Shown here: positions 17,281 to 47,910 of the stretch, piece by piece | How positions within the stretch are numbered: the first letter of the stretch is position 1 | How the letters are laid out: each line of letters begins with the position of its first letter | Assembly (NCBI RefSeq): GCF_964213995.1 | Contig: NC_135812.1 | Location: forward strand, 43,586,001-43,650,000 | Source of the DNA: Mustelus asterias | Lineage: Eukaryota | Direction: 5' to 3' | DNA: 64,000 bases | Notes under the pieces: generated by a model | Told to the model about the DNA's origin: nothing | The model's database searches: none | The model's input: only the letters and a program-made list of their open reading frames with translations | Translations under genes and position numbers: made by a program

Positions 17281-18249
17281 TTTTAAAAATTAATGGTTTC
17301 ATTTATCCATTTTTACAGAAGTGGCTGTATAAGCCAGACTTCAGAACACATCTCACACCCACCTGCATTAACCAAAGCTGAGAGAGGTCTCTGAATAACA
17401 CATGGTTTAAGGACCTGATAGGTCAAAAACGCTAGTTCTTGAGTTCACAGTAGCTGTAGTTTAACTCTAAATAGCCCAGGTGGCCCACTGGATCCACTTG
17501 AAGCAGTGTGTGGGAGATCTTTCAAATCTGATACACTGGCATTACTGTTCTACTCACTTTGTTTATAGTATTTCTGAAGCCAGTACTAGAATGGCTCTGC
17601 ACAAATGATCAGTGTCTGTGTAATCATATCAATAACAAACCTGATCTCTGCGCATGATCATCATTTCAGGCAGCAAATTACCAACAGGCACTAAACCCTG
17701 ATCACAATTTCACTGACAAATGTCAATTTGAGCAATTCAAAAAGCACTAACAACCTATTCTGGAATATAAGACTACTTACTAAGAATTAGAAATCAGTGT
17801 TTGGTAGCTCTTTTTATATTTGCCCCCTCTTGGTGTTTATGGGAAATTAAGTGTATTATTTTGCAAAATTCTGGATCATCAGTATAACGTTGCAACAAAC
17901 TCCATCTGCACCTGAAGGAAATCAGGAACAGGAGCGAGCCTTTTAGCCTCTTGGGCTTCTCCACTTTTTCAAAGAGATTTTGGCTAAACTGTAGCCTAAC
18001 TCCAAATATCCTCCTGTACCCCAAATCCCTCAATACCACTGATAGATTCTTGTTAATCAATCTCAAATTTAAAAAAAGTTACAATTGGCCCAGCATCAAT
18101 TGCCATCTACAGGAGTGTTCTAAACTTGTACCACCCTGTGTGTGCAGAAGTGTTTCCTAATTTCACACCCAAAAGATCTGGCACTAAATTTTAGTAAGAG
18201 TTCTAACAACACCAGGTTAAAGTCCAACAGGTTTATTTGGTAGCAAATA

Positions 18250-18286
18250 CTATTAGCTTTCGGAGCCCTGCTCCTTCGTCAGATGG
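18250..18286 (-). ncRNA. Minimal type-I hammerhead ribozyme motif (one stem-I mismatch)
   Basis: Minus strand reads CCAT-CTGACGA-A-GGAGC agg GCTCC-GAAA-GC-TA-ATAG. Confidence 0.7.
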
Positions 18287-18352
18287 AGTGGATATCTGCT
18301 CAAACAGGGCATACAGAGACACAAAATCAAGTTACAGAATACTGATCAGAAT

Positions 18353-18853
18353 ACCACACAACCTCAAACAGACCACTGTCCGCAGCAAACTACCCAGCCT
18401 TCAGGAGAACAGTGACCACGACACCACACAACCCTGCCACAGCAACCTCTGCAAGACGTGCCGGTCATCGACACGGATGCCATCATCTCATGTGAGAACA
18501 CCATCTACCAGGTACACAGTACCTACTCTTGCAACTCGACCAACGTTGTCTACCTGATACGCTGCAGGAAAGGATGTCCCGAGGCATGGTACATTGGGGA
18601 AACCATGCAGACGCTACGACAACGGATGAATGAACACCGCTCGACAATCACCAGGCAAGACTGCTCTCTTCCTGTGGGGGAGCACTTCAGCGGTCATGGG
18701 CATTCAGCCTCTGATCTTCGGGTAAGCGTTCTCCAAGACTGCCTTCACGATACATGACAGCGCAGAGTCGCTGACCTGAAACTGATAGCCAAGTTCCGCA
18801 CACATGAGGACAGCCTAAACCGGGATCTTGGGTTTATGTCACACTATCAGTAA
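18353..18853 (+). pseudogene. PLE C-terminal GIY-YIG endonuclease (frameshifted, one internal stop)
   Basis: Cys-rich linker CHSNLCKTC, then NVVYLIRC...WYIGET...LRQRMNEHR...VGEHF...LNRD; TAA at 18851-18853. Confidence 0.88.
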
Positions 18854-19064
18854 CCCCCACAGCTTGCCTCCTGGATTTGCAGAATCTCACTGGCTGTCCT
18901 GTCTGGAGACAATACACATCTCTTTAACCTGTGCTTAATGCTCCCTCCACTCACATCGTCTGTATCTTTAAGACCTGGTTGGCTGTAGAGGTTCGCATTC
19001 TAATCTGTATTCTGTAACTTGATTTTGTGTCTCTGTATGCCCTGTTTGAGAGCAGATATCCACT

Positions 19065-19101
19065 CCATCTGATGAAGGAGCAGTGCTCCGAAAGCTAATG
19101 G
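19065..19101 (+). ncRNA. Minimal type-I hammerhead ribozyme motif (intact)
   Basis: CCAT-CTGATGA-A-GGAGC agt GCTCC-GAAA-GC-TA-ATGG. Stem I is CCAT/ATGG, stem II is 5 bp, and helix III is reduced to a palindrome. Confidence 0.82.
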
Positions 19102-19594
19102 CATTTGCTACCAAATAAACCTGTTGGACTTTAACCTGGTGTTGTTAAAACTCTTACTGTGTTTACCCCAGTCCAATGTCGGCATCTCCACATCATGACT
19201 AAATTTTAGACCATGCCTCTTAGTCCTTGCCTTTCCAACCAGCAGAAGTATTTTTCTCTGTCCACCCCATCAGTTCTCCTTAATACCTTGAAGATTTTGA
19301 CCAAACTCATGAGTGTAAAATGAATGTTTTAACTTTAATTTGCCGCAGATCCTAATTATTTCCCACCATCTCCCACAGCTCGATTTCAGAACAGTTTCAT
19401 AAATTGGCTTTTCAACATTCAATTTTTGCTGGAAACGTGATGTCACTAAGCACAGAAAACAAAGGGAATTTATACCTACTCAAATGGAGCAATACTGTTT
19501 TGTATTATTACAGTGGCGCCAAAGACCTTCTGCCAAATGGATTGCTATGAATTTCTTTCATCGCCAATCCACGGCACCCTGTATCTATCTGCTT

Positions 19595-19789
19595 GATGTG
19601 GAGATGCCGGCGTTGGACTGGGGGTAAGCACAGTAAGAAGTCTCACAACACCAGGTTAAAGTCCAACAGGTTTATTTGGTAGCAAATACCATAAGCTTTC
19701 GGAGCAAGGGGCAGCGCTCCGAAAGCTTATGGTATTTGCTACCAAATAAACCTGTTGGACTTTAACCTGGTGTTGTGAGACTTCTTACT
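19595..19789 (-). mobile_element. Short non-coding PLE fold-back element (family A)
   Basis: About 75-bp near-perfect inverted arms plus the family-A tail; flanking duplication CTATCTGCTT; hammerhead core truncated in both arms. Confidence 0.85.
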
Positions 19790-20754
19790 CTATCTGCTTG
19801 TTGCAGAGAGCACTGCTAGGTTTTGCTCAGTTCACAACTGGACTGGCCACATTTAAAACCAGTTTGTAGACACAGAACAGATCTGCACATATCCGTACAA
19901 TTTTGTAGTTTTGAAATGTAATTGCAAAATGAAATTTTGGTTTTCCAGTCTCAAAATTGCTGCTGGCTATCCCTTAATTTAGACTTTTGTTATTCCAACT
20001 GTTTCGCAGGCTAGACAGAAAAGTTCATTTTGTTTCATTTTAGGGTTAAAATTGGATGCTTAATTGAAAGAAATTTGGTCAAGTAAAAAATTAAGAATAA
20101 ATTTTTTAAAAATCAAGAACGGGTTTTGAATATCCATCACCTCCTCCAACCAACACCACCACCCCCTCTCTAAGGCCCTATTTGCCCTCCCTCAGTGGTC
20201 GGCTCTGACTGTTGTACCCCTACTGCTCTCCATTGCCCTTCCCCAGCACTTCTCCCTTCCACTGCTCAACATCACTGCTGACTCCTCCTTATCTCACACC
20301 TCCTCCCTTCTCCTCCCACCCCACCCCCACGTTGGATTCATTACCTCACATCCTCTAACCTCAAAAGTTTAAATTGATCTTGATTGCTTGTAGGAGATTT
20401 TGTAAGTTGTGAACATTCATATAGCATATGTCTCAGAAAAGTACTTTGCATGTACGCACACAATGAGTTGCAGACTAATGTTAAGTGGGTGGATGTGTGG
20501 GTGCCTGTGGCAACGATGATGCACAAACAGCAATTAAATTATTGAAAGTTGTACTATATTTGGTGGTGTTTGAGGGGGGGGGGGGGGTGGAATATAGGTC
20601 AGGATTATTTTTAAATTCATCCTTGAGATGTGAGCATCATGAGTAAGGCCAGCATTTATTGCCCATCCTTAGTTGCCATTGAGACGACAATGGTGGGCAC
20701 TTCTTGAACCACTGCGGTCCATGTGTTGTAAGAACACCCACATTGCAGTGCTGT

Positions 20755-21945
20755 TAGAAGCATAGAAACTAGGAGCAAGTGTAGGCCATTCGGCCTTCAA
20801 ACTTGCTCCAACATTGAACACAACAATGACTGATCCTCTATCTCAACGCCATATTCCTGCTTTCTCCCCATACTTCGTGATGCCACTAAACTCGAAAAAA
20901 AACTTCTTGAATAAATTCAGTGACTTGACCTCCACAGCCTTCTGTGTTAGAGAATTCAACAGATTCATTACCCTTTTGAGTGAAGAAATGTTTCCTCATC
21001 TCAAGTGGTCTATCCCGTATCCTGAGACTGTATCCCCTGGTTCTACATTCCCCAACCAGGAAAAACATTCTCCCTGCATCTAGGTTGTTCAGCCCTGTCA
21101 GAATTTTATATGTTTCAATCAGATCTCCTCTCATTCTTTAAACTCTACCGAATATAGGCCCAGAAGAGTCCCACCAACTCCAGTATCAGCTTAGTGAACC
21201 TGCGCTGCACTCCCTCTATGGCAAGTATATTCTTCTGAGGTAAGGAGACCAAACCTGCATGCAATACTCCAGGTGTGGTATTACCAAAGCCCAGTACAGC
21301 TGCAGTAAGATATCCCTTCTTCTGAACTCGAATCCTCGAGCAATGAAGACCAGCATATCATGAGCCTTCATAATTGCTTGCTGCACCTATCGCTCCACTT
21401 TCATTGACTAGTGTAAAAGGACACCCAGATCCCTTTATACATCCACACTTCCCTATATATCACCATTTAAATAATACTCTTCCTTTCTGTTATTTACACC
21501 AAAGTGTATAACTTCACATTCAGCCACATTGTACTACATCAGCAATGTGTTTGCCCACTCAACTTGTCTAAATCAACTTGAAGTTTCCTTGCATCCTCCT
21601 CACAACTCCACCCAGTTTGGTGTCACCAGCAAACCTGGAAATGTTACATTTGGTTCCCTCATCCAGATTAGTTATACAATATATCTATATACATTGTAAG
21701 TAGCCGGGCTCAAGTGTTACCCCACTCTGTTTCCTGTTGGTTAATCAATTCTTAATCTATGCCAATACATCACCCCCTATACCTCTTATGGAGGAACCTT
21801 ATCAAAACTCAAAAGTCCAAATACACCACATCCACTGGTTCTCCCTTATTGATTTTATTCATTACATCTTCAAAAAGCTCCAGTAGATTTCTTTCATAAA
21901 CCCATGCTGGCTTTGTCCAACCCCGCTAATGCTTTCCAAATGTTC
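20755..21945 (-). mobile_element. 5'-truncated CR1 LINE nested in a LINE 3' fragment
   Basis: Translations MRGDLIETYKIL...RTRGYSLRIR and SQHGFMK; the host repeat continues at 20617-20755 and 21950-22395. Confidence 0.85.
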
Positions 21946-23616
21946 TGTAATGGGAGAGAATTCCAGGATTTTGACCCAACGACAGCGAAGAAACAATGAT
22001 CTAATTCCTAGTCTGGATGGTATGTGGCTAGAAGGAAACTTGCAGGTAGTGGTGTTCCCATGCATCTGCTGCCCTTGTCCTTCTAGCTGGTAGAGGTTGT
22101 AGGTTTGGAAGATGCTATCGAATGAGCCTTGGCAAGTTGCTGCAGTGCATCTTGTAAATGTTATGCACTGCAGCCACTGTATGTTGGTGGTAAAGAGAAT
22201 GAATATTTAATATGTTGGATGGGGCGCCAATCAAGCAGGACATGTGTCTTCGAAGGTGTCAAGCTTCGAGTATTGTTAGAGCTGTACTCATCTAGGCAAG
22301 TCACATTCCTGACTTGTGCCTTGTAGATGGTGGAATGGCTTTGGGGAGCCAGGAGGTGGGTTACACAGTGTAGAATTCCCAGCCTTTAACCAGCTCTCAT
22401 CATCTCAACAATCTGAAGGGGGTCACTCATTAGTGTGCCAGCTTTAACTTGTGCTGAGGTCCTGGTGTAAGGCTCAAATCCACAACCTTCTACTCACTTA
22501 TACAAGATCCTTCAATCATTTCGCAAACAATGAACATGTCGTGCAGTGCAGCAAACTGGATCACAAGACACATTCCAATCTTGTGTCAAAAGTGTACTTG
22601 TGTAGAGCCATATGGTACTAAATTTATTTCAGCTGCAGAAAATCTCAAGTCAACAGTATTACATTATTTGTACATTCCAATGCTAATTCATGACACAATT
22701 GCATAGAAATAATTTTGGAGTTGGGTACTGGTATCTGTACCTTGTCTCTATTTCACAATACTGGTGTTTAATCATAAACACGTAGCTACAGGCAATAATA
22801 GTGCCTTAGTAATATAAAATAAAAGGTAGCGCTGCTGATATGAATGTCTTGGCTGCAGGGTAAACATAACATCAAACTGCAAGAGTCCTGAATAAGGGCA
22901 TTACAGCCAAATTTCTTTCCTGTGTTGTTTCACCAGCATTTCCCATCTTTATTTCAGATTTTCAGCATGTTAGACAAAACTTAATTTTGGGAAATGGGAG
23001 CATACATTTTGGAAAAAATATTGAAGGAAGTATTTCCCTTTAATAGCGAAAAAAAAGAGATCTAGGAGTTCCGAAATATTAAATGTGACATGAATTTGCA
23101 TTGCATCTTTATCACAGGGTAACATTCCAAGATTCGCAAAAATGTCTTGGAAGGGTACTCCAGAGATAGAAGCAAGGTTGCTAACGGCTTACACCAACGA
23201 AGAAATGAAGGGAAGAGAGAGTGTACACAGAAGCGCAGAAGAAAGGAATACTCAATAGGGATTTATAGGACCGGAACAACCTGTGGAAGCAGGGGTAGGG
23301 AAGATTGTGGAAGTATTTATAGACAGTGACAAGGATTTTAAATATACTGAAAAGAACAAAAGCAAGGTGATAATGTCCACCTCCACAAAATCATTATTTA
23401 AACATCAGTTGCAATACTGCTTCCAATTTAGGATTGCCCACTTTAGCAAGGGAAACAGGGCCACAGACTGAAGGGCAGAAAAGAATTTTTAAGATAATAA
23501 GGATTAGAAACAAAAACCCATGGAATAAAAGTGACTTTGCATGGATTCAAAGTTGGCCGAGTGACAGGAAACAGCAGAGCATGGTGCATGTGCAGAGCAT
23601 GGGAATCTGATTGAGG

Positions 23617-23916
23617 TGGCACAGTGGTTAGCACTGCTGCCTCACAGCCAGGGACCCAGGTTCAATGCCAGCCTCGGGTCACTGTCTGTGTGGTGTTTGC
23701 ACTTTCTCCGAGTCTGCATGGGATTCCTCCGGGTGCTCCGGTTTCCTCCCACAGTCCAAAGATGTGCGCGTTAGGTTAATTGGCCATGCTAAATTGACTC
23801 TTGTGTCAGGCGATTTGCAGGGTAAGTGTGTGGGATTACAGGAACAGGGCCTGGGTGAGATTGTGTTGGTACAGACTCAATGGGCCGAATGGCCTCCTTC
23901 TGTACTGTAGGGATTC
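23617..23916 (+). mobile_element. HE1-like SINE
   Basis: Complete head, core and tail. Confidence 0.9.
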
Positions 23917-25582
23917 TGTGGTGAACGGTTGTTTTTTGGATTGGAAGATGATAAACAGTGGGATTCCCCCAGAGGTTGGTCTAAGTAAGGATCACTGCTT
24001 TTCTTGATCTATATTAATAATCTAGATGTGTGGGGGGCAGGGCAAGATTTCAATCAGCAGATGAAACAAAACTTACAAGTATTTTGAACTGTGAAGGGGA
24101 TAGTAATAGATTCCAAGAAGATAAAGGCAGGTTGGTGGAATAGGTTAACATGTGGCAGATTAATTTTAAGGCAGAGAAAGTGTGAAGCGATATATTTTGA
24201 TAGCAGGAACAAGAAAATGTAATGTAAAATAAAAGGTACAATTTTAAATTCGTGCAAGAGCAGAGGGACTTGGTAGTGTATGCACACAAACCACTGAAGG
24301 TGGCAGGGCAGGTTAGAATAGAATAGAATCCCTACAGTGCAGGAGACCATTCGGCCCATCATGCCTGCACCGACCACAATCCCATCCAGACCTTATCCCT
24401 GTAACCCCACGTATTTACCCTGCTAATCCCCCTGACACTAGGGACAATTTAGCTTGGCCAATCAACCTAACCCGCACATCTTTAGACTGTGGGAGGAAAC
24501 TGGAGCACTCGGAGGAAACCCACGCAGACACAGGGAGAAAATGCAGACTCCACACAGACAGTGACCCGAGGCCAGAATTGAACCCGGGTCCCTGGCGCTG
24601 TGAGGCAGCAGTGCTAATCTTTGCTGGCCCATGATCTTTCTCTCAGAAAGTTCCCACAGTAAATTTATTCCTCAGCAGCAGTGAAAGGGAAGTGGGGGTT
24701 GCTGGCTCCATCCACAAGGTTAAGTGGCTTTCCCAGCAGCACTCAGGAGCCAGGAACTGGAGCCTCCTCTCTGCCAATCACCATTTTTCTCCACGCCATA
24801 GGTGACTATCACCCCTTGTCCCACAATAGCCTCTCTCGCCATGTCCCGATTGCAGTCAACCTTCCCTTCTCATCCCCACAACTGCAGCAGTGAGCCGGCC
24901 TTTTATCCCACCCGCCCAACAAGCTGCCTCCTGTTGTTGAAAAAGCAATTAACAAGGCAGACAGGATTCTGATCTTTATAACTGGAAGCACAGATTACAA
25001 AATCAAGGAAGTTATGATTACCCTTTATAAGACACTGGTTCTGCCTCAATTGGAGTATTGCGTTCAATTCAGGGTGCCAAACTTTACAAGGATGTGAAGC
25101 CATTGCAGAAGGTGCAGAAAGATTTACAAGAATAATTCCAAAAATTAGACACCTTAGTTCAGTGAACAGATTGACAAAGCTGAGGCAATTCTCCTTAGAA
25201 AAGATTTGGATTGAGGTATTCAAAACCATGACAGGTCCGTTCAGAGTAGATAGTGAGACAATGTTCCTATTGGCAGAAGAGTTGAGGACAAGATGACAAT
25301 TAATTAAGGTGACTAGCAAAAGAACCAAACGTGACATGAGGGAAAACTTTATTATGCAGAGTGTGGTTAGGATCTGGAATGGATTGCCTGAGAATTTGAT
25401 TGAGATAGGTTCAATCGTGGTTTTCTAAAGGGAATTGGATTTTCATCCAAAGAGAAAGATTTGTAGGGCTGTGGAGAAAAGGCAGGCAAGTGGGACTAGG
25501 CAAGTTACTCTTATAGAGAACCAGCACAGACAAGTGGGGCTGAATAGCTTCCTCCTGTGCAGCAACCATTCAATTATTCTAT
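23917..25582 (+). mobile_element. Degenerate CR1 RT/3' region interrupted by an HE1-like SINE (about 24320-24620, minus) and other sequence
   Basis: Decayed NSGIP..G / YINNLD / ADETKL motifs; YKTLVLPQLEYCVQF; CR1 3' UTR. Confidence 0.7.
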
Positions 25583-26214
25583 GAAATTGGTTAAAAGGAG
25601 GTTGGATGGAAATCAAAATTGACAAATCAGGAGGTATTATCACTGGTGGATCAGTAATGAGGGGGGCCATAAAATGAACGGTAATTAGCAAAAGAACAAA
25701 AGGAGAAGTTAGGATTGCTTTCTTTTTAAAAAAAATAGGGCCTGGTCGGACATGAAATGCCCTAAAGACAGCTTGATCCTAGATGTTGGAATATGACCAA
25801 TTTCAGGCTCTGAAATTACCCCATTACCCAATACTTCTACAAATGTGGCGAGTCATATTGGTTTGTGGGACAATTCCATGGAGCCCAAAATAGCTGCCTT
25901 TCAGTCTCCAGCATGAGCACACTTATGTTGGGAACGCAAGTACCATACTATTTCAAAAATTACCAAAGGAGCTTCATTCCAGTGGTGAGATGAGAATGAC
26001 TGCCCTTGAAATCAAGGCAACATTTGACTGAGTGTGACATCAAGGAGCATTCAGCTAAGAAGAGAGGCTGGGTTTGTTTTCCTTGGAGCAGAGAAGGCTG
26101 AGGGGGACCTGGTTGAGGTGTACAAAATTATGAGGGACAATAATAGGGTAGATAGGAAGAAGCATTTCCCCTTCATAAGGGGGGGGAAAGGCTTGCAACG
26201 GGATCTTGATCATT

Positions 26215-26487
26215 TGCCCCATCGAGGCTGCACCAACAACAATCCCACCCAAACCCTATCCCCATAACCCCACATTTACCCTGCTTATCCCCCTGACAAA
26301 ATGGGGCAATTTAGCATGGCCAATCAACCTAACCCGCACAATTTTGAAGTGTGGAAGGAAACCGGAGCACCCAGAGGAAACCCACGGATACATGGGGACA
26401 ATGTGCAATCTCCACACAGACAGTGACCCGACGCTGGAATCAAACCTGGGTCCCTGGCACTGTGCTAACCACTATGCCACCGTCCCG
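26215..26487 (-). mobile_element. HE1-like SINE
   Basis: Reverse-complement SINE core. Confidence 0.85.
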
Positions 26488-26570
26488 TCCCACTAAATGT
26501 AACTAAAAGTGCTATTGTCAACAGACCGATCTTGTCAATTAAACAGGTGGAAAGGTTCCTCAAAGAACTC

Positions 26571-27822
26571 AAATTTGATTGAGTTTTTTGAAGGGGTAAC
26601 CAAGAAGGTAGATGAGGGCAGTGCAGTTGATGTTGTCTACATGGACTTTAGCAAGGCCTTTGACAAGATACCGCATGGTAGGTTGTTGCATAAGATGAAA
26701 TCTCACGGGATCCAGGGTGAGGTAGCTAAATGGATACAAAATTGGCTTCTTGACAGAAGCCAGAGGGTGGTTGTAAAGAATTGTTTTTCAAACTGGAGGC
26801 CTGTGACCAGCGGTGTGCCTCAGGGATCAGTGCTGGGTCCACTCTTATTTGTCATTTATATTAATGATTTGGATGAGGATATAGGAGGCATGGTTCGTAA
26901 GTTTGCAGATGACACTAAGATTGGTGGAATACCGGACAGTGAAGAAAGTTATCTCCAATTGCAACGGGATCTTGATCAATTGGGCCAGTGGGCTGACGAA
27001 CAGCAGATAGAGTTTAATTTAGACAAATGCAAGGTGATGCATTTTGGTAGATTGAACCACGGCAGGACTTACTCAGTTAATGGTAGGGCGTGGGGAGAGT
27101 TACAGAACAAAGAGATCTAGGGGTACATGTTCATAGCTCCTTAAAAGTGGAGTCACACGTGGACAGAGTGGTGAAGAAGGCATTTGGCATGCTTGGTTTC
27201 ATCGGTCAGAACATTGAATACAGGAGTTGGAATGTCTTGTTGAAGTTGTACAAGACATTGGTAAGGCCACACTTGGAATACTGTGTGCAATTCTGGTCGC
27301 CCTATTATAGAAAAGATATTATTAAACTAGAAAGAGTGCAGAAAAGATTTACCAGGATGCTACCGGGACTTGATGAATTGAGTCATAAGGAGAGGCTGGA
27401 TAGACTGGGACTTTTTTCTCTGGAGCGTAGGAGGCTGAGGGGTGATCTTATAGAGGTCTATAAAATAATGAGGGGCACAGATCAGCTAGATAGTCAATAT
27501 CTTTCCCCAAAGGTAGGGGAGTCTAAAACTAGAGGGCATAGGTTTGTGAGAGGGGAGAGATACAAAAGTGTCCAGAGAGCAATTTTTTCTCACACAGGGT
27601 GGTGAGTGTCTGGAACAAGCTGCCAGAGGTAGTAGTAGAGGCGGGTACAATTTTGTCTTTTAAAAAGCATTTAGATAGTTACATGGGTACGATGGGTATA
27701 GAAGGATATGGGCCAAATGCGGGCAATTGGGATTAGCTTAGGGGTTTTAAAAAATAAAGGGCGGCATGGACAAGTTGGGCCAAAGGGCCTGTTTCCTTGC
27801 TGTAAACCTCTATGGCTCTATG
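26571..27822 (+). mobile_element. Young 5'-truncated CR1 LINE (RT and C-terminus)
   Basis: YMDFSKAFDK, GVPQGSVLGPLLFVIYINDL and FADDTK motifs; frameshifts; CTCTATGG repeat tail. Confidence 0.95.
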
Positions 27823-28774
27823 ATAACTAGAATTAAAATAACATTCAGTTGATGTAAAAAAGCCAATATAAAAGGGAGGCAAACTAAGATAACTGTGCTT
27901 TTTTCCTCATCTACCTAGAGACAGCCTGCTTATTCAGTCTGAGGTTGCCTTCTTTTGCTTTTTGGTTCAATGGGTAAGCCCAATTATTCCCTCCACACCT
28001 TCCCAATTCCAATATTGAGATAAAGCTGCAGAAAAAAAAACTAAACTTGAAATTTGCTGTTTTGAATCAACACAATTGCTTTGCCCGTTTGCTCCAGGGA
28101 CCACTCAGCTTTCTCGACAGCCAGCTTTGAAACGGAACACACCTTCAATTGTCTGGTCATGCACAGTGAACCGAACAAAGTTCCACTGGGGAGGAGGTAA
28201 TGGCAGTACATCTTGACTCCACTTAGCTTTATACTTTGCAAAGAGAGCTTTATGAAAACACATCTTTACTTCAAGTGTTTGAATAATTCCTTCATATCAT
28301 TTTGCTTATTACAGATCTAACGTTAGAAAGCACGTTTTTCCTCAGTCGATATCACTTGCTTCTTTTCAGACTTGAAAAATCCCTGGAAAATCAAAATCCG
28401 CATCATGTTGCTACGTCAGATTTCCACAGCACCGCACAATTTTGGAATAAGAAAACCCAAATGCACAGAGCACTGACAACCTAACTCCCTGTTGCACCCA
28501 TTGGAAATGAGTGAATACAGTGCTCCAAATACGGAAAGAGGGCTCAAAAGGTAAATCTGACAAATATATATCTGAATCAAAAGGGCATCAAAATAGCTAC
28601 AAGAAGAAATGACTAGTCTCTTAAATCTGTTAAGTTTTATTTTAAGATAAAATTGTGAGAGTGCATTTGTTTAGGTGGCCCAGAGGAACTGTGGTGCTCC
28701 GGGGAGACCGTGAACCTCCAAGGTGATAAAACAGTGGTGTTTAGTTTCTATTTTTGACATAAGAAACCAGCTAG

Positions 28775-29050
28775 TTTAAAGTTTATTTATTAGTGTCACA
28801 TGGAGGCTTGCATTAACACTGCAATAAAGTTACTGTGAAAATCCCTTCGTCGTCATGCTCCGGCACCTGTTCGGGTGCACCGAGGGAGAATTTAGCATGG
28901 CCAATACATCTAACTAGCACGTCTTTCAGACTGTAGGAGGAAAGTGGGGCACCTGGAGGAAACCCATGCAAACACGGGGAGAATGTGCAGACTCCACAGT
29001 GACCCAAGCAAGAAGTGAACAGATCCCTGGTGCTGTGAGGCAGCAGTGTG
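28775..29050 (-). mobile_element. SINE (HE1-related head, AATAAATAAACTTT tail subtype)
   Basis: Same subtype as the copy at 13785-14060; it accounts for the spurious C-terminal half of ORF 28813-29679. Confidence 0.8.
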
Positions 29051-29258
29051 CCAAACAAAATACATATTTTTTGGGATTGAAAACAGAAATCAGCAAAGTA
29101 ATGTGAGGGAGGAAGAAAGGAATCAAATATTTTAAAGCAGATTTGCAGCTGGAGTAAATATTTAGTTGTAATGGACAATAAAGAGTAGACACAATGGCAG
29201 AAGTTTGAATTTTCATGGATAGCATTGATGCCAGCTGTGGCTGAGTGCCTGGCCTTAC

Positions 29259-29583
29259 CCGTGTCCTGCCGGAACTGGCTGAGTGTGGGGATGTCAATGA
29301 TGTAGGGTGCCAGCCGGGGATCGGCCTGGCCCAGGGAGATGCTGCTGGCTCCTTTGGCCGCCGCTCCGTGCGGCTGCTGGAGGGAGCGCTCGATGTGCTC
29401 GCTCACCCGGCTGCTGTAGGGCCGCCAGCGGGCCGCTTCGTCCTCCCACTCCCACACGGCGACCAGCGGTGGCCCCAGGGCCGGCCCGGAGCCCGACATC
29501 ACCGCCAGGGAGAAAGCCGAGCCGCTGGCGCCGAGGCCTCCGCCGGCAGCTGCCCCTCCGCTTCCGTGAGGCGAGGTGGCCAT
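29259..29583 (-). CDS. DTX2: Deltex E3 ubiquitin ligase 2, coding exon 1 (first WWE domain)
   Basis: MATSPHGSG...VAVWEWEDEAARWRPYSSRVSEHIERSL...SISLGQADPRLAPYIIDIPTLSQFRQDTG. Donor GTAAGG at 29258; 325 nt (phase 1); lies in a CpG island. Confidence 0.93.
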
Positions 29584-29734
29584 ACCCTCCTGTTGCCGGC
29601 CCCCGGAGTTAATACTGAGTGAGTGTGAGAGGGGGGGGGGGGGGCGGAAAAACAAACGCTGACAACTTTCCACTGCCAACTCCTCCCTCCCGCTGTCTCC
29701 CCCACTCCCGTCTTCAAGGGTGTCCGCACCTGCG

Positions 29735-29823
29735 CTGCCTTCTGGGAGTTGTAGTTCCTTCCGGCCAGCATCGCCGCGGGGTTTGATATCCGGTTCGCCA
29801 GCTGCAAACTACAATTCCCAGGA
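29735..29823. promoter_or_regulatory. DTX2 CpG-island promoter with two oppositely oriented ZNF143(SBS)-type motifs
   Basis: ACTACAACTCCCAGAAGGC on the minus strand (about 29737-29755) and ACTACAATTCCCAGG on the plus strand (about 29808-29822). Confidence 0.75.
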
Positions 29824-30419
29824 GACCCCGCGCCGGTCCGGCCAGTGCCCTCTGTTGACGGCTGGTGTCAGGTGCGAGGCGAGAAATGAAACTTAGTGAG
29901 AAAACTTTTATTGCAGTATAACAGTGCAAACCAGGCGGGGCAGATCTCACTGCTCCGGGCGTGTAAAACAAACGCTGCAGTTATAAAGATTAGGAGGGTG
30001 TTGATCATGCAAACGCCAAATGCATAATCACTTCTGCAGGTTTAGGAATGAGCTGTTATTGAGAAATTGGGGCTATTTTCCTTGGAGAAAATAAGTTGAG
30101 GGATTTGATTGAGGTATTCAAAAATCATGAGGGTTCTGGACAGATGGGGGAAAACTGTTCCCACTGGTGGCAGGCTTGGGCAGATTTAAGGCAATTGGCA
30201 GAAGAATCGATGACGACACGAGGAAATGCTTTTCCATGTAGCCAGAGGATAGGCTCTGGAATGCAGTGCCTGAAAGTGTGGTGGAGGCATTCAAGAGGGA
30301 ATCGGATTTTTATCTGAAAAGTAACATAGAAAATAGAAGCGCAAGTAGGCCATTCAGCCCTTCAAGTCTGCTCTGCCATTGATTTTGACCATGGCTGATC
30401 ATCAAATTCAAATTCACAG

Positions 30420-30916
30420 GCAGCACAGTGGCACAGTTGCTCAACTCCTCACTCACCTGAAGAAGGAGCCTGAGACTCCGAAAGCTTGTGCTGCCAAATA
30501 AACCTGTTGGACTTTAACCTGGTGTTGTGAGATTTCTTACTGTGCTTACCCCAGTCCAACGCGGGCATCTCCACATCATGGCCTCACAGCGCCAGGGACC
30601 CAGGTTCAATTCCCGGCTTGGGTCACTGTGTGTGTGGAGTTTACGCAGTAAGAGTTTTAACAACACTGTGTGTTGTTACATTGTGTGGAGTTTGCACATT
30701 CTTCCCATGTCTGCGTGAGTTTCCTCTGGGTGCTCTGGTTTCCTCCCACAGTTCAAAGATGTGCAGTTTAGGTTGGTTATACTAAATTGCCCCTTAGTGT
30801 CAGGGGGACTAGCTAGGTTAAATACAAAGGGTTATGGGGATAGGGTCTGGGTGGGATTGTGCTCGGTGTAGACTCAATGGGCCAAATGGGCTCCTTCTGC
30901 ACTGTAGGGATTCTAT
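30420..30916 (+). mobile_element. HE1-like SINE carrying two PLE family-A insertions
   Basis: The SINE head is split by a PLE terminus (about 30440-30578) and by a micro-insertion at about 30647-30682. Confidence 0.8.
30454..30490 (+). ncRNA. Minimal type-I hammerhead ribozyme motif (family A variant)
   Basis: CAC-CTGAAGA-A-GGAG cctgaga CTCC-GAAA-GC-TT-GTG. Stem I is CAC/GTG, covarying relative to the CCAT/ATGG copies. Confidence 0.75.
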
Positions 30917-31699
30917 AAGGGTTGAGGAGAGAAGTTGGGTGAGTGGCTCCAGGTAGATTGCTCTTACAAAGTGCCAGCGCAGAAATTATGAGACGAATAG
31001 TTTCCTTCTGTGTTGTAACAATTTTCTGATTCTGTGAAGTAATATAATCTGTTGTAATTTATGCTCTTCTCAGCATTGTTGCACAGATTTTTACTGAATT
31101 CAGTGTTACATTGTCTCATAATTAAATAATTGTAACAAGGTTGATGGGAAACGTTGTGTTCCCAAGACGTTTTATGGAAATTACTACAGTAGTCGAAAAT
31201 GGATGCTATGTTCACAAAGAACGCATGAACTAGTACAAGGGCAAGGAGATCCAGCCAATGCATGTAGGTACGTACACTTCTAAAGCAATGCTGGAGGAAA
31301 AGGAGTAAGGGACTGGGATTACAAATCTACAGGGGTAAAAACAATTCTCAATCTGGGATTAAGTCACTGCAGCATTACTGCAGTACAAAGAGTTTCTGGG
31401 ATTTTTTTTACAAAGGTAAATTCATCCAGGAAATGGATTCGTGTTCTTTTTTTAAGTTTATTCTGCTCTAGTTTTGCAATAAATCATGCCCCACAACCTA
31501 ATTTTTATGAAGTGATGCTTTGTTCATACAGCTCCACTATTTACATCATTATTCAATCATTACTACAGCCATATACATTTCAGAAATCTTCATACTGGTC
31601 CACATTGTCTTCTTTAGTAGCTTCTACTTATAAGTTTGATACCACGCTGTGGAAGTTACTGTAATAACCGAGGTACAATCTTCAGCTGAGATGTCATAA

Positions 31700-32350
31700 A
31701 ATCGCAGAATATCCCAAAGTGCCTTTCAGTCAATGAGGTACCTTTCAAGCACAGTCACTTTGGTAATGTAGAAAATGCACCAACCAATTTGTACACAGCA
31801 AGATTCCACAAACAGAAATGATCAGATAATCTCTTGTTAACTGTGCTGAAGGAAAAATATCAGTCAGGACACCTCGCGAACACTCCTGCCCTTTACATGG
31901 TCCCATGGGATCCTTTACATGAGAGGAAAGAAGGATCCTCAGTTTAATGTCTCATTAAAAACACTCCCTCAGTACTGCACTGGAGTGTCAGCCGTACTCT
32001 GGAGTGAAATTTAGACCCACAGCATTAGATTTAAAGGGATTACTACAAACTGAGCCATGACATAGGCATAGACCTTTTTTGCCCTCTCAGGTGAATAATA
32101 AAGATCCCACATCATTACCTGCAGAGTAGGAAAGCTCTGCTGCCATGTCCAGCCTTTATCCCTCAAATAGCACCATCAAAAACAGATTGAATTGTTACTC
32201 AGCTCATTGTTGTTTGTGGGATCTTGCTGTGTACATTTTTGGCTGCCATATTTACCAAGACAAGTGATTACACTCCAAAAAGTATTAATTTGGGTGTAAA
32301 GTGATTTGGCATGACATGTGGAAGTAAATAATGCTGTACAGATGCAGTTC
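31700..32350. mobile_element. Deu-type SINE fragments (SacSINE1/AmnSINE1-like), adjacent copies in opposite orientations
   Basis: CATGGGATCCTTTACAT...CACTCCCTCAGTACTGCACTGGAGTGTCAGCC; related copies at 33500-33907 plus 38444-38605 and at 41990-42350. Family name is by recall. Confidence 0.55.
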
Positions 32351-32569
32351 TTGCATGATTAATAAAAAGATCAGGGTGGAGATAAACTATTTTAAGAAAA
32401 AAGGGAATATTCCAATCTGTTAATTGTTTTTATGATGGTGTCCTCCCTTCATGAGTAAAAATCTTTTTGACTTTCATTTTGAGAAGAAACTTAATAGGTG
32501 TTTAAACATTTCATAATATAAAGCAAATCAACCTTCCTATTCTTAACATTTCAATCCCTATTTTAAGTA

Positions 32570-32755
32570 CAGTAAGGAGTCCCACAACACCAGGTTAAAG
32601 TCCAAAAGGTTTATTTGATAGCACGAGCTTTCAGAGCGCTGCCCCTTCATCACTCACCTGAAAGCTCTTGCTACCAAATAAACCTGTTGGACTTTAACCT
32701 GGTATTGAGACTCCTTACTGTGCTTACCCCAGTCCAATGCCGGCATCTCCACATC
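32570..32755 (+). mobile_element. Short PLE fold-back element (family A, older)
   Basis: Inverted arms CAGTAAG...GCTTTC and GAAAGC...CTTACTG plus tail TGCTTACCCCAGTCCAATGCCGGCATCTCCACATC. Confidence 0.82.
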
Positions 32756-32809
32756 TGTTTTAATGCACTAGAGGTGAAAATCTTTGAGAGAATTTACGAA
32801 GAATATTGC

Positions 32810-33020
32810 TGAAAAAAGAGACATGCTATCAAATCTTTTTGTCTTGCACTCATCAGGACAGTTAAACCAACAGTTAAGGGAACAACAATTTACACTGCAA
32901 AAGAAGAGAGTGCTGATTGGTTGGCAAACGGACTCTGATTGATAGAGGTGTTGCCATGGAGAATGCAGCAGAGAACAGTTTACTGGCCAGCCTTCATTAA
33001 AATTCAAACCAGGCAGGTTG
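32810..33020 (-). mobile_element. Putative PLE terminal repeat (family C) with decayed hammerhead
   Basis: A second copy lies at about 41620-41830; the minus strand reads TGTC-CTGATGA-GTgcaagAC-AAAA-AGAT-TT-GATA. Confidence 0.55.
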
Positions 33021-34294
33021 CACTTGGAACTTTTTGATTGATCTAATCTGAAACAAAATCAACTAATGGCTACGAATGGAGCTTTGAAGAAATAACATTC
33101 AGCAGAGACACCTGGGAGGCCACAACCCATAACTAAAAGCAAACACAGCAGTGGAATGCAGTGACTGCAGAGACCCAAATCAATATTGGAAATGTATATG
33201 TGTCGGAGGCTAAGATCAGGACATCAGAATAGCAGAGTGAGGGGGAAGTATGGAAAATCGGGCTCCTATGGCCCTGGAACGTGGAAGAATAAAAGCAGCC
33301 AGACCATGTGTACTGTATACTGATAGGGGCTTCCCAACCCAAGTAACAGCGCATACCTTTCCCATTCCCTATTGCTCGAGTGTATCCATTCAACATTGTC
33401 AACATGTGCTGTGGAAAAGAAAATGTAAGAGGTGTGTATGGTCTAAAGTTGTTAAAGTTAATGTTAAGATCAGAAAGCTATTAAAGTGCGTAAATAAATT
33501 TTTAAAACTGACATTTATATGATGCCTTTCACAACCACTGGACATCTCAAAGTGCTTTAGAGCCAATGGAGTATTTTTGAAATGTAGTCTGTTTAACATA
33601 GTTTTATTTCTGATTAACAATAACGTATAGAGTTATGGGGACAGTGAGTGTAAAAGGCATTGAAATGTCCAATCAGCAATGATCATATTGAATGGTGCAG
33701 CAGCCTTGACATGTTGAATGGGCTACTCCTGTTCCTATGTTATACCTAAGGAACATGGCAGCCAATGGCGCACAGCAAATCCCTTCTTGCAGCAATTTGA
33801 TAATAATCAGATAATCTGTTGTTGTGACGTTGATTGAAGGATAAATAAATATTAGTTAGGATATTGGGATAATTCCCCTGCTCTTCTTTGAAACAGTGCT
33901 ATGAGATTGTTCCAGAGGAGCAGCTAGAGTGGTGGTTCAAGTGAGGAGGGCTAGTAGGTAAGAGGTATTTTTAACTTACACTTTTTTTCGGAGTTTTTTT
34001 TTCTCTAAGGCAGCCGCGAGTGTAAAACTGGAAGTAGGCCCCAGTGAATTTTTTGAGTCGGAGCAATGGAGGCAGCGAGTGGAATGCGAGACTGCGCAGG
34101 CGCCTGACGTCAGCCAGTAGCGCACGGAAGGTTTAAAAAGCAGGCTGCTCTATCCAGCGGGCAGCGTTGTGAGCGGGCCGCATTGTGAGAGGGAGCAGAG
34201 TGGGACGGCTTTGGCTCAAACAGGCTTTGGCGTGAACAGGCAGAGGCGAGGGTAGGTTCCGGTAAGTTGTTTTTGTTTCTTCAGAGTAGAAAGA

Positions 34295-35229
34295 ATGATA
34301 GGCAGGATGTTGGAATGCTTCTCTTGCAGGATGTGGGAAGTCAAGGAGACCTCCGGTGTTCCTGACAACGACACCTGCAGGAGGTGCATCCAGCTGCAGC
34401 TCCTAACAAACCGCGTTAGGGAACTGGAGCAGGAGCTGGATGACCTCCGGATCATTCGGGAGAATGAGGAGTTTATAGATAGTAGCTTCAGGGAGGCAGT
34501 TACGCCAAAGGCACAGAGCACAGGTAATTGGGTTACCGTCAAGCGAGGGAAAGGGACAGGGCAGGCAGAGCAGGGTTCCCTGTGGCCATTCCCCTCCACA
34601 ACAGGTATACCGATTTGGATACTGTTGTGGGGGATGCCTTACCTGCGGCAAGCTGTGGCAGCCGAATCTCTGGCACTGAGTCTGGTTCTGCAGCGCAGAA
34701 GGGAGGGTGGAAGAAGAGGAGAGCGGTAGTGATAGGGGACTCAATAGTCAGAGGTACAGACAGGAGGTTCTGTGGTCATGACAGAGACTCCCGGATGGTT
34801 TGTTGCCTCCTGGGTGCTCGGGTCAGGGATGTCTCTGTTCGCGTGCACAGCATTCTGAAGTGGGAGGGTGATCAGCCAGATGTCATGGTACACATCGGTA
34901 CCAATGACGTAGGAAGGAAGAGTGAGGAGGTCCTGAAGAGTGAGTATAAAGAGCTTGGTAGGAAGTTAAAAAGCAGGACCCCGAGGGTAGTAATCTCAGG
35001 ATTGCTACCTGTGCCATGTGCCAGTGAGGGTAAGAGTAGGATGCTCGGGCGGATGAACATGTGGCTGAGGAACTGGTGTAAGGGGCAGGGTTTCAGATTT
35101 CCAAATCATTGGGACCTCTTCTGGGGCAGGTGGGACCTGTACAAGAGAAACGGGTTACACCTGAACTACAAGAGGACCAATATACTTGCAGGGAGGTTTG
35201 CTAGTGTTATTGGGGAGGGTTTAAACTAG
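34295..35229 (+). pseudogene. CR1 ORF1: zinc-finger/coiled-coil plus SGNH esterase (one frameshift near 34550-34600)
   Basis: CFSCRMW...CRRC, LTNRVRELEQELDDLR coiled coil; VIGDSIVR, HIGTND and GLHLN esterase blocks. Confidence 0.88.
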
Positions 35230-37152
35230 ATTTGCAGGGGGATGGGAACCAGAGTGCCAGAGCAGATAGTGGAGCGGGGGGGGTGAAAATAAATGTTAGT
35301 AGTTCATGCAAAATCACAAATAGAAGGGTTGTGTGTGGTGGTAATAATCTTCTCAGGTGTGTCTATTTCAATGCCATGAGTATTATGGGGAAAAGAGACG
35401 AGCTGAGGGCGTGGATTGACACATGGAATTATGACATTATAGCCATTAGTGAAACTTGGCTACAGGAGGGGCAGGACTGGCAGCTCAATGTTCCAGGGTT
35501 CCGATGTTTCAGACGTGATAGAGGCAGAGGGATGAAGGATGGGGGGTGGCATTGGTAGTCAGGGAAAGTGTTACAGCAGTGCTCAGGCAGGACAGATTAG
35601 TGGGCTTGTCTACCGAGGCCATATGGGTGGAGCTGAGAAACAGGATAGGTATGACCACATTAATGGGGGTGTATTATAGACCACCCAATAGTCAGCGAGA
35701 ATTGGAGGAACAAATCTGCAGAGAGATAGCAGACAACTGCAGGAAACATAAAGTTGTGATAGTAGGGGATTTTAATTTTCCACATATAGATTGGGACTCC
35801 CATACTGTTAAAGCTCTAGACGGGTTAGAGTTTGTAAAATGTGTTCAGGAAAAGTTTCTAAATCAATATATAGAGGTACCAACTAGAGAGGATGCAATAT
35901 TAAATCTCCTATTAGGAAACGAGTTAGGACAAGTGGCGGAAGCGTGTGTAGGGGAACACTTTGGTTCCAGTGATCATAACGCCATTAGTTTCAACTTGAT
36001 AATGGATAAAGATAGATCTGGTCCTCGGGTTGAGGTTCTAAACTGGAAAAAGGCCAAATTTGAAGAAATGAGAAAGGATCTAAAAAGCGTGGATTGGGAC
36101 AGGCTGTGATTGGTAAGTGGGAGGCCTTCAAAGGAGAAATTTTGAGAGTGCAGAGTTTGTATGTTCCTGTCAGGATTAAAGGCAAAGTGAATAAGAATAA
36201 GGAACCTTAGTTCTCGAGGGATATTGGAACTCTGATAAAGAAGAGAGAGATGTATGACATTTATAGGCAACAGGGAGCAAATAAGATGCTTGAGGAGTAT
36301 AAAAAGTGCAAGAAACTACTTAAGAAAGAAATCAGGAGGGCTAGAAGAAGACATGAGGTTGCTTTGGCAGACAAGGTGAAGGATAATCCTAAGAGCTTCT
36401 ACAGGTATATTAAGAGCAAAAGGATAGTAAGGGATAAAATTGGTCCTCTTGAAGATCAGAGTGGTCGGCTATGTATGGAACCAAAAGAAATGGGGGAGAT
36501 ATTAAATGGGTTTTTTGCATCCGTATTTACTAAGGAAACTGGCATGGAGTCTATGGAAATAAGGCAAACAAGTAGGGAGGTCATGGAACCAAACAGATTA
36601 AAGGGGAGGAGGTGCTTCCTGTCTTGAGGCAAATCAGAGAAGATAAATCCCCAGGACCGGACAGGGTATTCCCTCGGACCTTGAAGGAGACTAGTGTTGA
36701 AATTGCAGGGGCCCTGGCAGATATATTTAAAATGTCGGTATCCACGGGTGAGGTGCCGGATGATTGGAGGATAGCTCATGTTGTTCCGTTGTTTAAAAAA
36801 GGCTCAAAAAGTAATGTGGGAAATTATAGGCCGGTAAGTTTGACGTCAGTAGTAGGTAAATTATTGGAAGGAGTACTAAGAGATAGGATCCACAAATATT
36901 TGGATAGACAGGGACTTATTAGGGAGAGTCAACATGGCTTTGTGCGTGGTAGGTCATGTTTAACCAATCTATTAGAGTTTTTCGAGGAGGTTACCAGGAA
37001 AGTGGATGAAGGGAAGGCAGTGGATATTGTCTACATGGACTTCAGTAAGGCCTTTGACAAGGTCCTGCATGGGAGGTTAGTTGGGAAGGTTCAGTCGCTA
37101 GGTATACATGGGGAGGTAGTAAATTGGATTAGACATTGGCTCAATGGAAGAA

Positions 37153-37374
37153 CAGTAAGAAGTCTCACAACACCAGGTTAAAGTCCAACAGGTTTATTTG
37201 GTAGCAAATACCATAAGCTTTCGGAGCACAGCTCCTTCGTCAGATGGAGTGACGAAGGAGCTGTGCTCCAAATGCTTATGGTATTTGCTACCAAATAAAC
37301 CTGTTGGACTTTAACCTGGTGTTGTGAGACTTCTTACTGTGCTTACCCCAGTCCAACGCCGGCATCTCCACATC
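37153..37374 (+). mobile_element. Short PLE fold-back element (family A) inserted in CR1 ORF2
   Basis: About 90-bp inverted arms plus tail; target duplication (TC)AATGGAAGAA at 37141-37152 and 37373-37384. The CR1 frame WLNGR|SQRVVV resumes after it. Confidence 0.92.
37211..37247 (-). ncRNA. Minimal type-I hammerhead ribozyme motif (intact)
   Basis: Minus strand reads CCAT-CTGACGA-A-GGAGC tgt GCTCC-GAAA-GC-TT-ATGG, with palindrome AAGCTT. Confidence 0.82.
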
Positions 37375-47052: not shown

Positions 47053-47910
47053 ATAAAAGCAAAATACTGCAGATGCTGGAATCTGAAACAAAAACAGAAA
47101 ATGCTGGAAAATCTCAGCAGGTCTGATAGCATCTGTGGGGAGAGAATTGTTGTGGGAAATTACCACTGGAGTCAGACTGGAGGTTCAATAATACAGTTTT
47201 ATTTCGGACACAGCTTCGGGGAGAAAGCACTGGTACTTGGCAGCTACTTTCTCAATCATACAATAGCAGTTGATCATTTTTATACCTTTTAGACAATGGA
47301 TAGTCCGGGCATTAGCCGTTTAATACATCGTTATAGTTGAGTAGACAGATCATGGTGATCGATAGTTAACACATCATTACAATCAGACAGGTACAGACAT
47401 GGGCAGTTAACATAGCATTGTTCATAGAATGGATACATTTCCTCTATCAATGGCTGGTTTCGATCTTTACATACAGTGATTGGTTTTGCTGCATTTATGT
47501 ATTTCTGTTCCCATCTATGGCTGATCTTATTATCAGACCTTATTGTCCTGGGTCTGTCCTTATCTTTAAAGTGCCTCAAGCCCTGACTAGCTTCCTGCAG
47601 TATTTTGGTTATTGCATGTTTTACTTTAAGTAGCTGTCTGTGCTGCATGTTTTAACTTTAAGTAGCTGTCTATGCTAAAAGCCAGTGCTTGCTTAATGTT
47701 TCTTCCCAGGTAACCATTTGTGTGTCAGGCAACCATTTTGTGTGTCAGGTACCCATTTTATAATTTTCTCCACTTCAGAATAGAGCCAATGTTTTTGAGT
47801 CTGAATGACCCTTTTGTCAGAGCAGTCATCTAGACTCGAAATGTTGGCTCTATTCTCTCCCCACAGATGCTGTCAGACCTGCTGAGATTTTCCAGCATTT
47901 TCTGTTTTTG
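47053..47910. mobile_element. PLE fold-back element (family B) interrupted by a solo LTR
   Basis: Inverted arms CAAAAACAGAAAATGCTGGAAAATCTCAGCAGGTCTG... and ...CAGACCTGCTGAGATTTTCCAGCATTTTCTGTTTTTG; 13-bp duplication CAGCATCTTAAAG at 47040-47052 and 47911-47923. Confidence 0.85.
47148..47777 (-). mobile_element. Solo LTR (630 bp)
   Basis: TG...CA termini with imperfect terminal inverted repeats; 4-bp TSD GAAT; minus-strand TATAAAA (about 47278-47284) upstream of AATAAA (about 47198-47203); short internal tandem duplications. Confidence 0.8.

Follow-up and report, generated by a model that had tools for sequence, protein, structure and literature searches.

Six insertions of one repeat family (family A) were found in the 64-kb window, that is, the whole stretch of DNA analyzed. 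They probably represent end-pieces, truncated on the 5' side, of an abundant Penelope-like element (PLE) of sharks, each likely a separate dead-on-arrival insertion formed by a staggered double cut, priming of two cDNAs on uncut RNA, and head-to-head joining of these cDNAs. Five of the six carried an inverted arm, and insertion lengths were graded (36 bp to 1 kb). These hairpin inserts are likely mostly ordinary, except that they tend to break inside a ribozyme motif.

The features are listed in Table 1. As described in the initial annotation, three short inserts consist of an inverted arm, an arm, and a tail (32570-32755 and 37153-37374 on the plus strand, 19595-19789 on the minus strand), the inverted arms share the start (C)AGTAAG, corresponding to 19158-19160 of the 1-kb copy, and the insert at 30442-30580 is a single arm. 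The tail, also present on this arm, measures 35-36 nt. The 1-kb copy has the same layout, but its breaks (18997/18353) are far from the ribozyme. The insertion at 30646-30681 had been missed. The family is indeed very large; the number of copies counted in 20 kb, six, is also the number in the entire 64 kb. Base-by-base reading was possible for these six insertions only. A one-sided tail of the 30-40-bp class together with an inverted 5'-truncated copy was present in all four two-armed copies with an intact 3' end. The fixed arm start, the one-sided tail, and the target duplications agree with the earlier proposal that the inserts were made by a PLE. The copy at 32570..32755 represents a subfamily that is 7 nt shorter after the cut site.

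Table 1. Features of family A and family B insertions in the window. Breaks are given in coordinates of the 1-kb copy, in the order inverted arm / tail arm.
Feature	Position	Strand	Details
Duplication of 1-kb insertion	18183..18194	+	12 bp; repeat at 19198-19209
1-kb insertion, inverted arm	18193..18352	-	Equals 18997-19158; 7 mismatches in 160 columns versus partner arm
1-kb insertion, tail-bearing arm	18353..19195	+	5'-truncated PLE 3' end
Broken C-terminal PLE ORF	18354..18847	+	CX4CxxC linker, GIY-YIG with CCHH residues
Predicted minimal type I hammerhead motif	19065..19101	+	C3 19069, stem II 19077-19089, GAAA 19090-19093
Tail of 1-kb insertion	19161..19195	+	35-36 nt; confined to one arm
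Short fold-back	19595..19789	-	Breaks 19075/19084; without whole hammerhead
Duplication of 19595 copy	19584-19595 / 19789-19800		12 bp
Single arm with tail and whole hammerhead	30442..30580	+	C3 30457; in SINE; break ~15 nt above C3
Mini fold-back	30646..30681	+	Break near 19139, ~40 nt below cut; tail arm mostly gone
Duplication of 30646 copy	30631-30642 / 30682-30693		12 bp; same SINE as 30442 copy
Short fold-back	32570..32755	+	Breaks 19070/19061; tail arm without stem II
Short fold-back in LINE RT frame	37153..37374	+	Breaks 19061/19070
Whole hammerhead of 37153..37374	C3 37243	-	On inverted arm
Duplication of 37153 copy	37141-37152 / 37373-37384		12 bp
Family B fold-back	47053..47910	-	36-nt tail, 13-bp duplication; 630-bp insert splits tail arm
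Family B fold-back	61006..61210	-	12-bp duplication; junction near 61128

Judged from its sequence, the parent of family A is a GIY-YIG PLE whose linker is of the Neptune/Nematis type, and it shares 89-91% identity with Mustelus asterias proteins. The broken ORF contains a frameshift near 18464, as well as stops, and its GIY-YIG match (PF01541, E 1.4e-4) scored 22.5 bits, just below the cut-off of 22.6. Two Cys residues between the VY and YIG motifs and His residues downstream make up the CCHH set, and the CX4CxxC linker was read in the frame of 18354, which points to one of two clades: a CX2-5CxxC linker upstream of GIY-YIG marks Neptune/Nematis and is missing in Penelope/Poseidon (PMC8557442). 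Close relatives (P0005, P0013, and P0038) encode an RVT_1 reverse transcriptase (RT) upstream of the endonuclease in one ORF, while the window copy is truncated. A PDB sequence search with P0038 returned no matches. The exact 27-nt core had no matches in the viral, metagenome, and genome contigs searched, nor did a degenerate 23-nt core in the metagenomes searched; protein-guided locus searches yielded 0 of 8 candidates in viral contigs and 1 of 11 in genome contigs, the latter with an 18-residue match. Contig joints of unspecified kind led from the tail end back to 18554, 18936, and 19039 and may or may not represent partial-tandem full-length copies (pLTR-ORF-pLTR). Penelope has been reported in the whale shark (PMC12910113, PMC8455134).

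Exact 12-bp repeats, sharing 1-2 nt with the element ends, flanked four of the six insertions, while the longest flanking match by chance was 8 bp (1,500 random position pairs). The long target duplications (10-12 bp) claimed earlier therefore stand for these four and not for the 32570 copy, where six exact bases only were found (at least six occurred in 40 of 1,500 random pairs) and the duplication is decayed or absent, or for 30442-30580, where flank comparison revealed no duplication. In support of the main reading, the duplicated site is present once in intact SINE copies and in a second LINE copy of the window. The AT content of the targets (0.58-0.83 versus 0.575 for the window) was not clearly elevated.

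According to the proposed mechanism, the two target strands would be cut by the enzyme of the element with a stagger of about 10-12 bp. Two cDNAs, presumably copied from one source RNA or locus, would be primed at two fixed positions of the uncut RNA, separated by 35-36 nt, and would then be joined head to head. These cDNAs would usually stop after 70-110 nt, so that the join would fall in the hammerhead zone. With the Anolis PAc enzyme in vitro, both strands were cut and extended, reverse transcription started at two sites flanking the tail, and the RNA used as template was mainly uncut (PMC11167929). PAc also required sequence beyond the tail (PMC11167929); with their ends at the tail, the short copies likely lack this downstream stretch, and therefore their re-mobilization would be unlikely. 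Both arms of one copy carry the same diagnostic subfamily variants, which differ between copies, and the tail arm exceeds the inverted arm in length in two copies and falls short of it in two, fitting symmetric twin priming. The following run against this reading: the arms of the 32570 copy (6 mismatches in 64) are by raw identity no closer to each other than to the 19595 copy, and the position pair 19061/19070 was used by both the 32570 and 37153 copies, in mirror order. Self-priming, proposed for rotifer PLEs (PMC3846280), in which one cDNA folds back and copies itself, leaving the endonuclease to resolve the hairpin at the border of the tail, would account for the within-copy arm identity and for the close break pairs (80-186 nt apart) among the listed ORF joints. 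Nevertheless, it is rather unlikely: self-priming of the tail strand needs a longer tail arm, which fails in two of the four copies with unequal arms, the junction overlaps are only 0-3 nt, and the second start site seen in vitro (PMC11167929) is left out.

Separate insertions are also favored over the MITE-like non-autonomous family suggested initially, in which one or a few fold-back masters would be transcribed and re-inserted by the PLE protein. Such a family is very improbable, since all five junctions in the window differ, with none recurring as expected for a propagating MITE, subfamily variants differ among the copies, junctions are distinct even in two near-identical copies (0 mismatches in 76), lengths are graded, and the short copies lack the sequence beyond the tail required by PAc (PMC11167929). 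On the contrary, the predominance of short copies (5/6) would be consistent with a MITE, as would two properties of public run X1, namely the summed depth of the shared core bin, about 4- to 24-fold relative to ORF bins, and one joint (19058/19105) at depth 138, corresponding to about 4-5 loci. Contig depth was not taken as copy number because of its gradual rise over 19032-19143 and the confounding effect of subfamily divergence. In four public runs, 75655, 20376, 45889, and 6445 contigs matched the 837-bp arm, and all 30 bins were covered, those of the ORF part among them. In each of the four runs, loose ends were found behind 19145 and 19161, where unrelated DNA follows the shared arm start. 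Among the 15 of 73 joints listed, inversion joints in these shark contigs occurred throughout the element and mostly had the depth of a single locus, and an identical junction of high copy number would escape notice in short contigs; three of the seven opposite-strand joints listed lay wholly in the ORF. The depth of X1 joints was mostly 27-39 per contig, versus 16-35 in seven of the eight long pieces of this run.

The hammerhead of the 1-kb copy is predicted to cut after 19097. A descriptor search found three complete motifs in the window versus none in 50 Markov simulations, while an Rfam scan of the window revealed no hammerhead and two weak miRNA matches elsewhere. Helix I swaps between subfamilies (CCAT/ATGG, CAC/GTG). 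A whole hammerhead was missing from both the 19595 and 32570 copies. Folds of the hammerhead region were no stronger than those of shuffled sequences (z 0.7 to -1.7). A stem of GUUGGACU with AGUCCAAC, combining the tail and the conserved core, recurred in folds and was rejected owing to weak z-scores and the lack of two-sided pair changes.

None of the 11 breaks of family A arms fell at 19097/19098; nine were above the cut, mostly by 13-45 nt, and the RNA template was therefore likely uncut. All breaks lay within 19050-19097 in four of the six insertions (P 0.03-0.04 for mean lengths of 50-100). In a second PLE-like family, family B, the same held for both readable copies (P about 0.06): the junction of 47053..47910 is near 47823, in a decayed hammerhead-like motif, and that of 61006..61210, near 61128, falls at stem II / GAAA of the decayed motif. 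Matches at 7200-7319, 22920-22967, 45375-45571, 11763, and 17020 were left out of this count as too decayed or doubtful. Pooling gave six of eight insertions (P about 0.005, with a crude null and a zone chosen afterwards). Such clustering exceeds the expectation of plain exponential truncation, which counts against the main reading. The tendency of short copies to break at the hammerhead, noted in the initial annotation, is real for the three short fold-backs (all junctions in or just above the motif), but two of the six insertions break elsewhere and contig joints occur inside the ORF; on these grounds, together with the lack of breaks at the cut site, the ribozyme is at most a possible cause.

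In particular, it is scarcely credible that self-cleavage creates an RNA 5' end where the RT stops and switches. The motif is a well-formed minimal hammerhead, and two contig joints of unspecified kind end at 19098 and 19099, but the position of the breaks indicates that the copied RNA ran through the cut site; besides, in the available text on PAc, ribozyme mutants insert normally and RNA-seq ends were not detected at the cut site (PMC11167929). The bias may stem from stopping at the folded ribozyme, from the 5' end of the RNA, or simply from typical copy length. A stop set by the RNA, with the same integration route and the RT either stalling in the folded uncut hammerhead or running off a 5' end above it, is possible though somewhat unlikely. 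It would explain the pooled excess, as well as the hammerhead-proximal position of the best-supported opposite-strand joints among those listed (19069 with 19106 or 19111; 9 and 21 contigs, four runs), and a candidate 3' splice site ending at 19055, just above helix I, mirrors the intron of D. virilis Penelope. However, the zone was picked after family A was seen, three decayed family B-like matches were excluded, the folds did not exceed shuffles, and 19069, 19106, and 19111 also mark the end of a subfamily's alignment to the reference. Moreover, the hammerhead is equally far from the arm start in families A and B (63 and 65 nt to the cut), and therefore length and structure are inseparable. 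It is a speculative and fairly improbable extension that the uncut PLE hammerhead, or an RNA 5' end directly above it, serves as a built-in RT stop in vivo; most PLE insertions in sharks would then be stereotyped double-armed hairpins of 75-110 nt, generated by an enzyme dimer that primes on both target strands with a single RNA as template. If true, the PLE hammerhead would have a cleavage-independent role, readable in tens of thousands of genomic fossils.

For genome annotation, these short hairpins are PLE ends that could be mislabeled as DNA-transposon MITEs or miRNA-like hairpins. Both the formation of tandem/inverted PLE structures and the role of the hammerhead have been called unresolved (PMC8557442); an abundant family whose starts are fixed and whose breaks can be counted would allow both questions to be tested in one shark assembly. 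Transcribed inverted repeats of Penelope gave siRNAs in Drosophila (PMC3681739), and by analogy the shark fold-backs may possibly do the same.

Insertions of endonuclease-containing (EN+) PLEs are known to show 5' truncation, an adjacent inverted 5'-truncated copy, and a 30-40-bp tail at one end (PMC8557442, PMC3846280). The abortive insertions offered initially as an under-described system are therefore essentially this published pattern. Canonical EN+ PLEs and family A have in common the C-terminal GIY-YIG with CCHH and the CX2-5CxxC linker; unlike the former, most copies here are cut to 75-110-nt arms, and duplications are 10-12 bp, compared to 8-10 bp in Adineta PLEs (Craig et al. 2021, PMC8557442; Arkhipova et al. 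2013, PMC3846280). A lean of breaks toward the hammerhead zone was not found in the available text of these two articles, nor an analysis of inversion junctions in that on PAc (PMC11167929), and no study of shark PLE fold-back breakpoints was found in the literature searched, with most subscription journals outside its scope. The hammerhead, predicted here from sequence, resembles metazoan PLE motifs (Cervera and De la Pena 2014, PMC4209133) in the extra base between 9 and 10.1, the G10.1-C11.1 pair, the palindromic 15.2-16.2, and a short helix I; in Schistosoma, opposite-strand hammerhead pairs are 100-700 bp apart, and sharks are not mentioned in the available text (PMC4209133). Non-LTR retrozymes (Li et al. 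2026, bioRxiv 10.64898/2026.07.22.740005) are also non-coding, pLTR-related, hammerhead-bearing, and present in a chondrichthyan, but their units are repeated head to tail in tandem, each containing a whole ribozyme, while family A is head-to-head and often lacks a whole ribozyme. The head-to-head arms and missing whole hammerheads do not fit the definition of a retrozyme. In L1 twin priming, the inverted segment comes from a different region of the RNA, located upstream. Both family A arms, in contrast, copy the same stretch from fixed starts, although L1 likewise yields an inverted, truncated insert between target duplications (PMC2837659). The Poseidon element PAc of Anolis carolinensis (Frangieh et al. 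2024, PMC11167929) belongs to another clade than the Neptune/Nematis-type linker of family A suggests, which weighs against the main reading, but its tail likewise lies between two fixed ends, and in both elements the hammerhead lies a short way upstream and the template is apparently uncut.

Six family-A insertions, belonging to a Penelope-like element (PLE) family, were found in the window by blastn with the 1-kb copy as query, all within 18193-37374 (see table). With positions numbered along the tail-bearing arm of that copy, the inverted arms of the family-A fold-backs start at 19158-19160, confirming the common start proposed in the initial annotation, and the tail spans 19161-19195, its end varying by about 3 nt between copies. 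Copies 32570 and 37153 share the same pair of break positions, 19061 and 19070, in mirror order. Junctions in or next to the hammerhead, likewise proposed initially, were found in 19595, 32570, and 37153 but not in the 1-kb copy. Two separate insertions lie 65 bp apart in one SINE copy (30417-30930), with a GC-rich stretch (near 29500-29900) no more than about 1 kb away.

Family-A insertions in the window and their break positions (inverted arm/tail arm)
Feature	Position	Strand	Breaks
1-kb copy	18193-19195		18997/18353
Short fold-back	19595-19789	minus	19075/19084
Short fold-back	32570-32755		19070/19061
Short fold-back	37153-37374		19061/19070
Mini fold-back	30646-30681		both arms at about 19139
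Single arm	30442-30580		about 19052-19054

Exact 12-bp repeats flank four of the six insertions, and the longest match among 1500 random position pairs was 8 bp. Within the window, uninterrupted SINE copies and another copy of the LINE have the target site once, which identifies the repeats at 30646 and 37153 as true duplications. The long target duplications noted earlier hold for four insertions, but the repeat at 32570 is 6 exact bases, and exact-repeat comparison of the flanks found none at 30442. The host of 37153 is a long LINE (34200-38400; GDSL-like ORF1, endonuclease, and RT), presumably CR1. An inverted pair of related repeat ends at 44363-44695, whose arms are 73% complementary with 22 bp perfect, is probably two LINE 3' ends. 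Two minus-strand open frames, 12211-12816 and 28816-29808, matched the WWE domain, which suggests exons from one or a pair of Deltex-like or related genes; copies 18193 and 19595 sit between them.

Searching with a minimal-hammerhead descriptor revealed three complete motifs in the window, against none across 50 Markov simulations. The family-A motif has the minimal-hammerhead traits given in PMC4209133, its helix I differs between two subfamilies (CCAT/ATGG and CAC/GTG), and its predicted cut follows 19097. Copies 19595 and 32570 lack the whole ribozyme. A candidate splice acceptor ends at 19055, just above helix I; the branch-point-like motif, pyrimidine tract, and CAG at 18998-19055 form a candidate 3' splice site of an intron in the terminal repeat (pLTR). 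In Drosophila virilis Penelope, transcription is described as starting in the pLTR, which also has an intron that ends at helix I (PMC4209133). A possible 8-bp stem (19123-19177) pairing the conserved core with the tail could form in all four aligned tail-bearing arms and would put the start of the arm at the base of an inner hairpin; it showed no covariation and weak z-scores.

The relation between breaks and ribozyme held as a tendency for the zone but not for the cleavage site: all breaks of four of the six insertions fall within 19050-19097, but none of the 11 arm breaks is at the cut. With nine of them above it, the RNA that was copied must have extended across the scissile bond. Such an uncut template agrees with PAc, the Anolis carolinensis Poseidon element, in which ribozyme mutants are reported to insert normally (PMC11167929). 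The probability of four of six is 0.03-0.04 under exponential truncation with a mean of 50-100 nt and a zone chosen afterwards. Pooled with family B, the second PLE-like family, six of eight insertions break in the hammerhead zone (P about 0.005, zone chosen afterwards, five further weak or decayed matches omitted). Because families A and B have nearly equal distances from arm start to cut (63 and 65 nt), an effect of the ribozyme is inseparable from that of a favoured cDNA length or of an RNA 5' end close by. We consider it doubtful that the uncut hammerhead causes the clustering.

Family B (47053-47910 and 61006-61210) shares the fold-back layout of family A; its tail is 36 nt long and its duplications measure 12-13 bp. 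In both readable copies the break falls within a decayed hammerhead-like motif, and no ORF-bearing copy was identified within the window. One arm is split by a 630-bp insert (about 47148-47777; TG start, CA end, 4-bp flanking repeat) that looks like a solo LTR. Decayed family-B-like ends occur at 7200-7340, 22920-22967, and 45375-45571, including a tail-to-tail pair at 45375-45553.

The initial annotation considered a MITE-like family of re-inserted fold-backs, for which identical junctions should recur; none did, all five junctions in the window being different. At least four variant types occur among the copies, each common to both arms of a copy, and 19595 and 37153 are identical across 76 compared bases, yet differ in their junctions. 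Contigs from 4 of 20 public runs were aligned to 18360-19196 at 80% likeness; 6445 to 75655 contigs per run were placed, covering 30 of 30 bins, ORF included, which shows that copies carrying the ORF are also abundant. Loose ends behind 19145 (549, 84, 452, and 40 contigs in the four runs) and 19161 (136 contigs in one run, X1) represent the common arm start followed by unrelated DNA. Among the best 15 of 73 joint rows, seven were opposite-strand, within the ORF (18563/18680, 18569/18755, 18713/18793) or near the ribozyme (19058/19105, 19069/19106, 19069/19111, 19069/19153). Rows 19069/19106 and 19069/19111 collect 9 and 21 contigs over the four runs, but their positions coincide with the alignment end of a shorter subfamily and therefore show hammerhead-proximal rather than identical junctions. 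In X1, opposite-strand joints mostly had a single-locus-like depth of 27-39 per contig, with one at 138. Short contigs could conceal a high-copy junction, so re-insertion is only weakened.

Separate twin-primed insertions are the probable explanation. The RT-endonuclease would cut the two strands of the target at points 10-12 bp apart, each cut end would prime at one of two fixed sites, and the cDNAs, usually both short, would be joined with a 0-3 nt overlap. For PAc in vitro, PMC11167929 describes cutting and extension of both strands, two start sites flanking the tail, and a requirement for RNA beyond the start site; by analogy, we infer that these properties may apply to family A. If the tail strand primed itself, as has been proposed for rotifer PLEs (PMC3846280), the tail arm should be the longer one, which is true of two copies and fails in two.

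The broken ORF end in the 1-kb arm encodes a CX4CxxC linker and a GIY-YIG domain. A longer-protein search gave 43 matches among 62 candidates, the best being Mustelus asterias predictions (89-91% identity), and several matched proteins have an RT domain upstream. These matches point to a shark host, and the GIY-YIG ORF end and these RT-bearing close relatives identify the predicted parent as an endonuclease-bearing PLE. By the linker definition alone (PMC8557442), the putative parent is placed with Neptune/Nematis and not Penelope/Poseidon. This PLE endonuclease piece also occurs inside several predicted shark host-gene isoforms (P0007, P0012, P0016, P0030, P0031, P0037, P0040, and P0042), reflecting either exonisation or annotation error.

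According to PMC8557442, PLEs typically show inverted 5'-truncated copies and a tail of 30-40 bp on one side. An Adineta PLE copy has the same parts as family A, but a 31-bp tail and a 9-bp duplication (PMC3846280), and in Schistosoma ribozyme pairs on opposite strands are attributed to truncated PLEs (PMC4209133). Retrozymes, unlike the family-A fold-backs, are described as head-to-tail (Li et al. 2026, bioRxiv 10.64898/2026.07.22.740005). Our literature search found no study of shark PLE fold-back breakpoints. The family-A set consists of real, well-preserved insertions of an already known kind, and the remaining point of interest is that breaks gather in the hammerhead zone although the RNA was apparently uncut.
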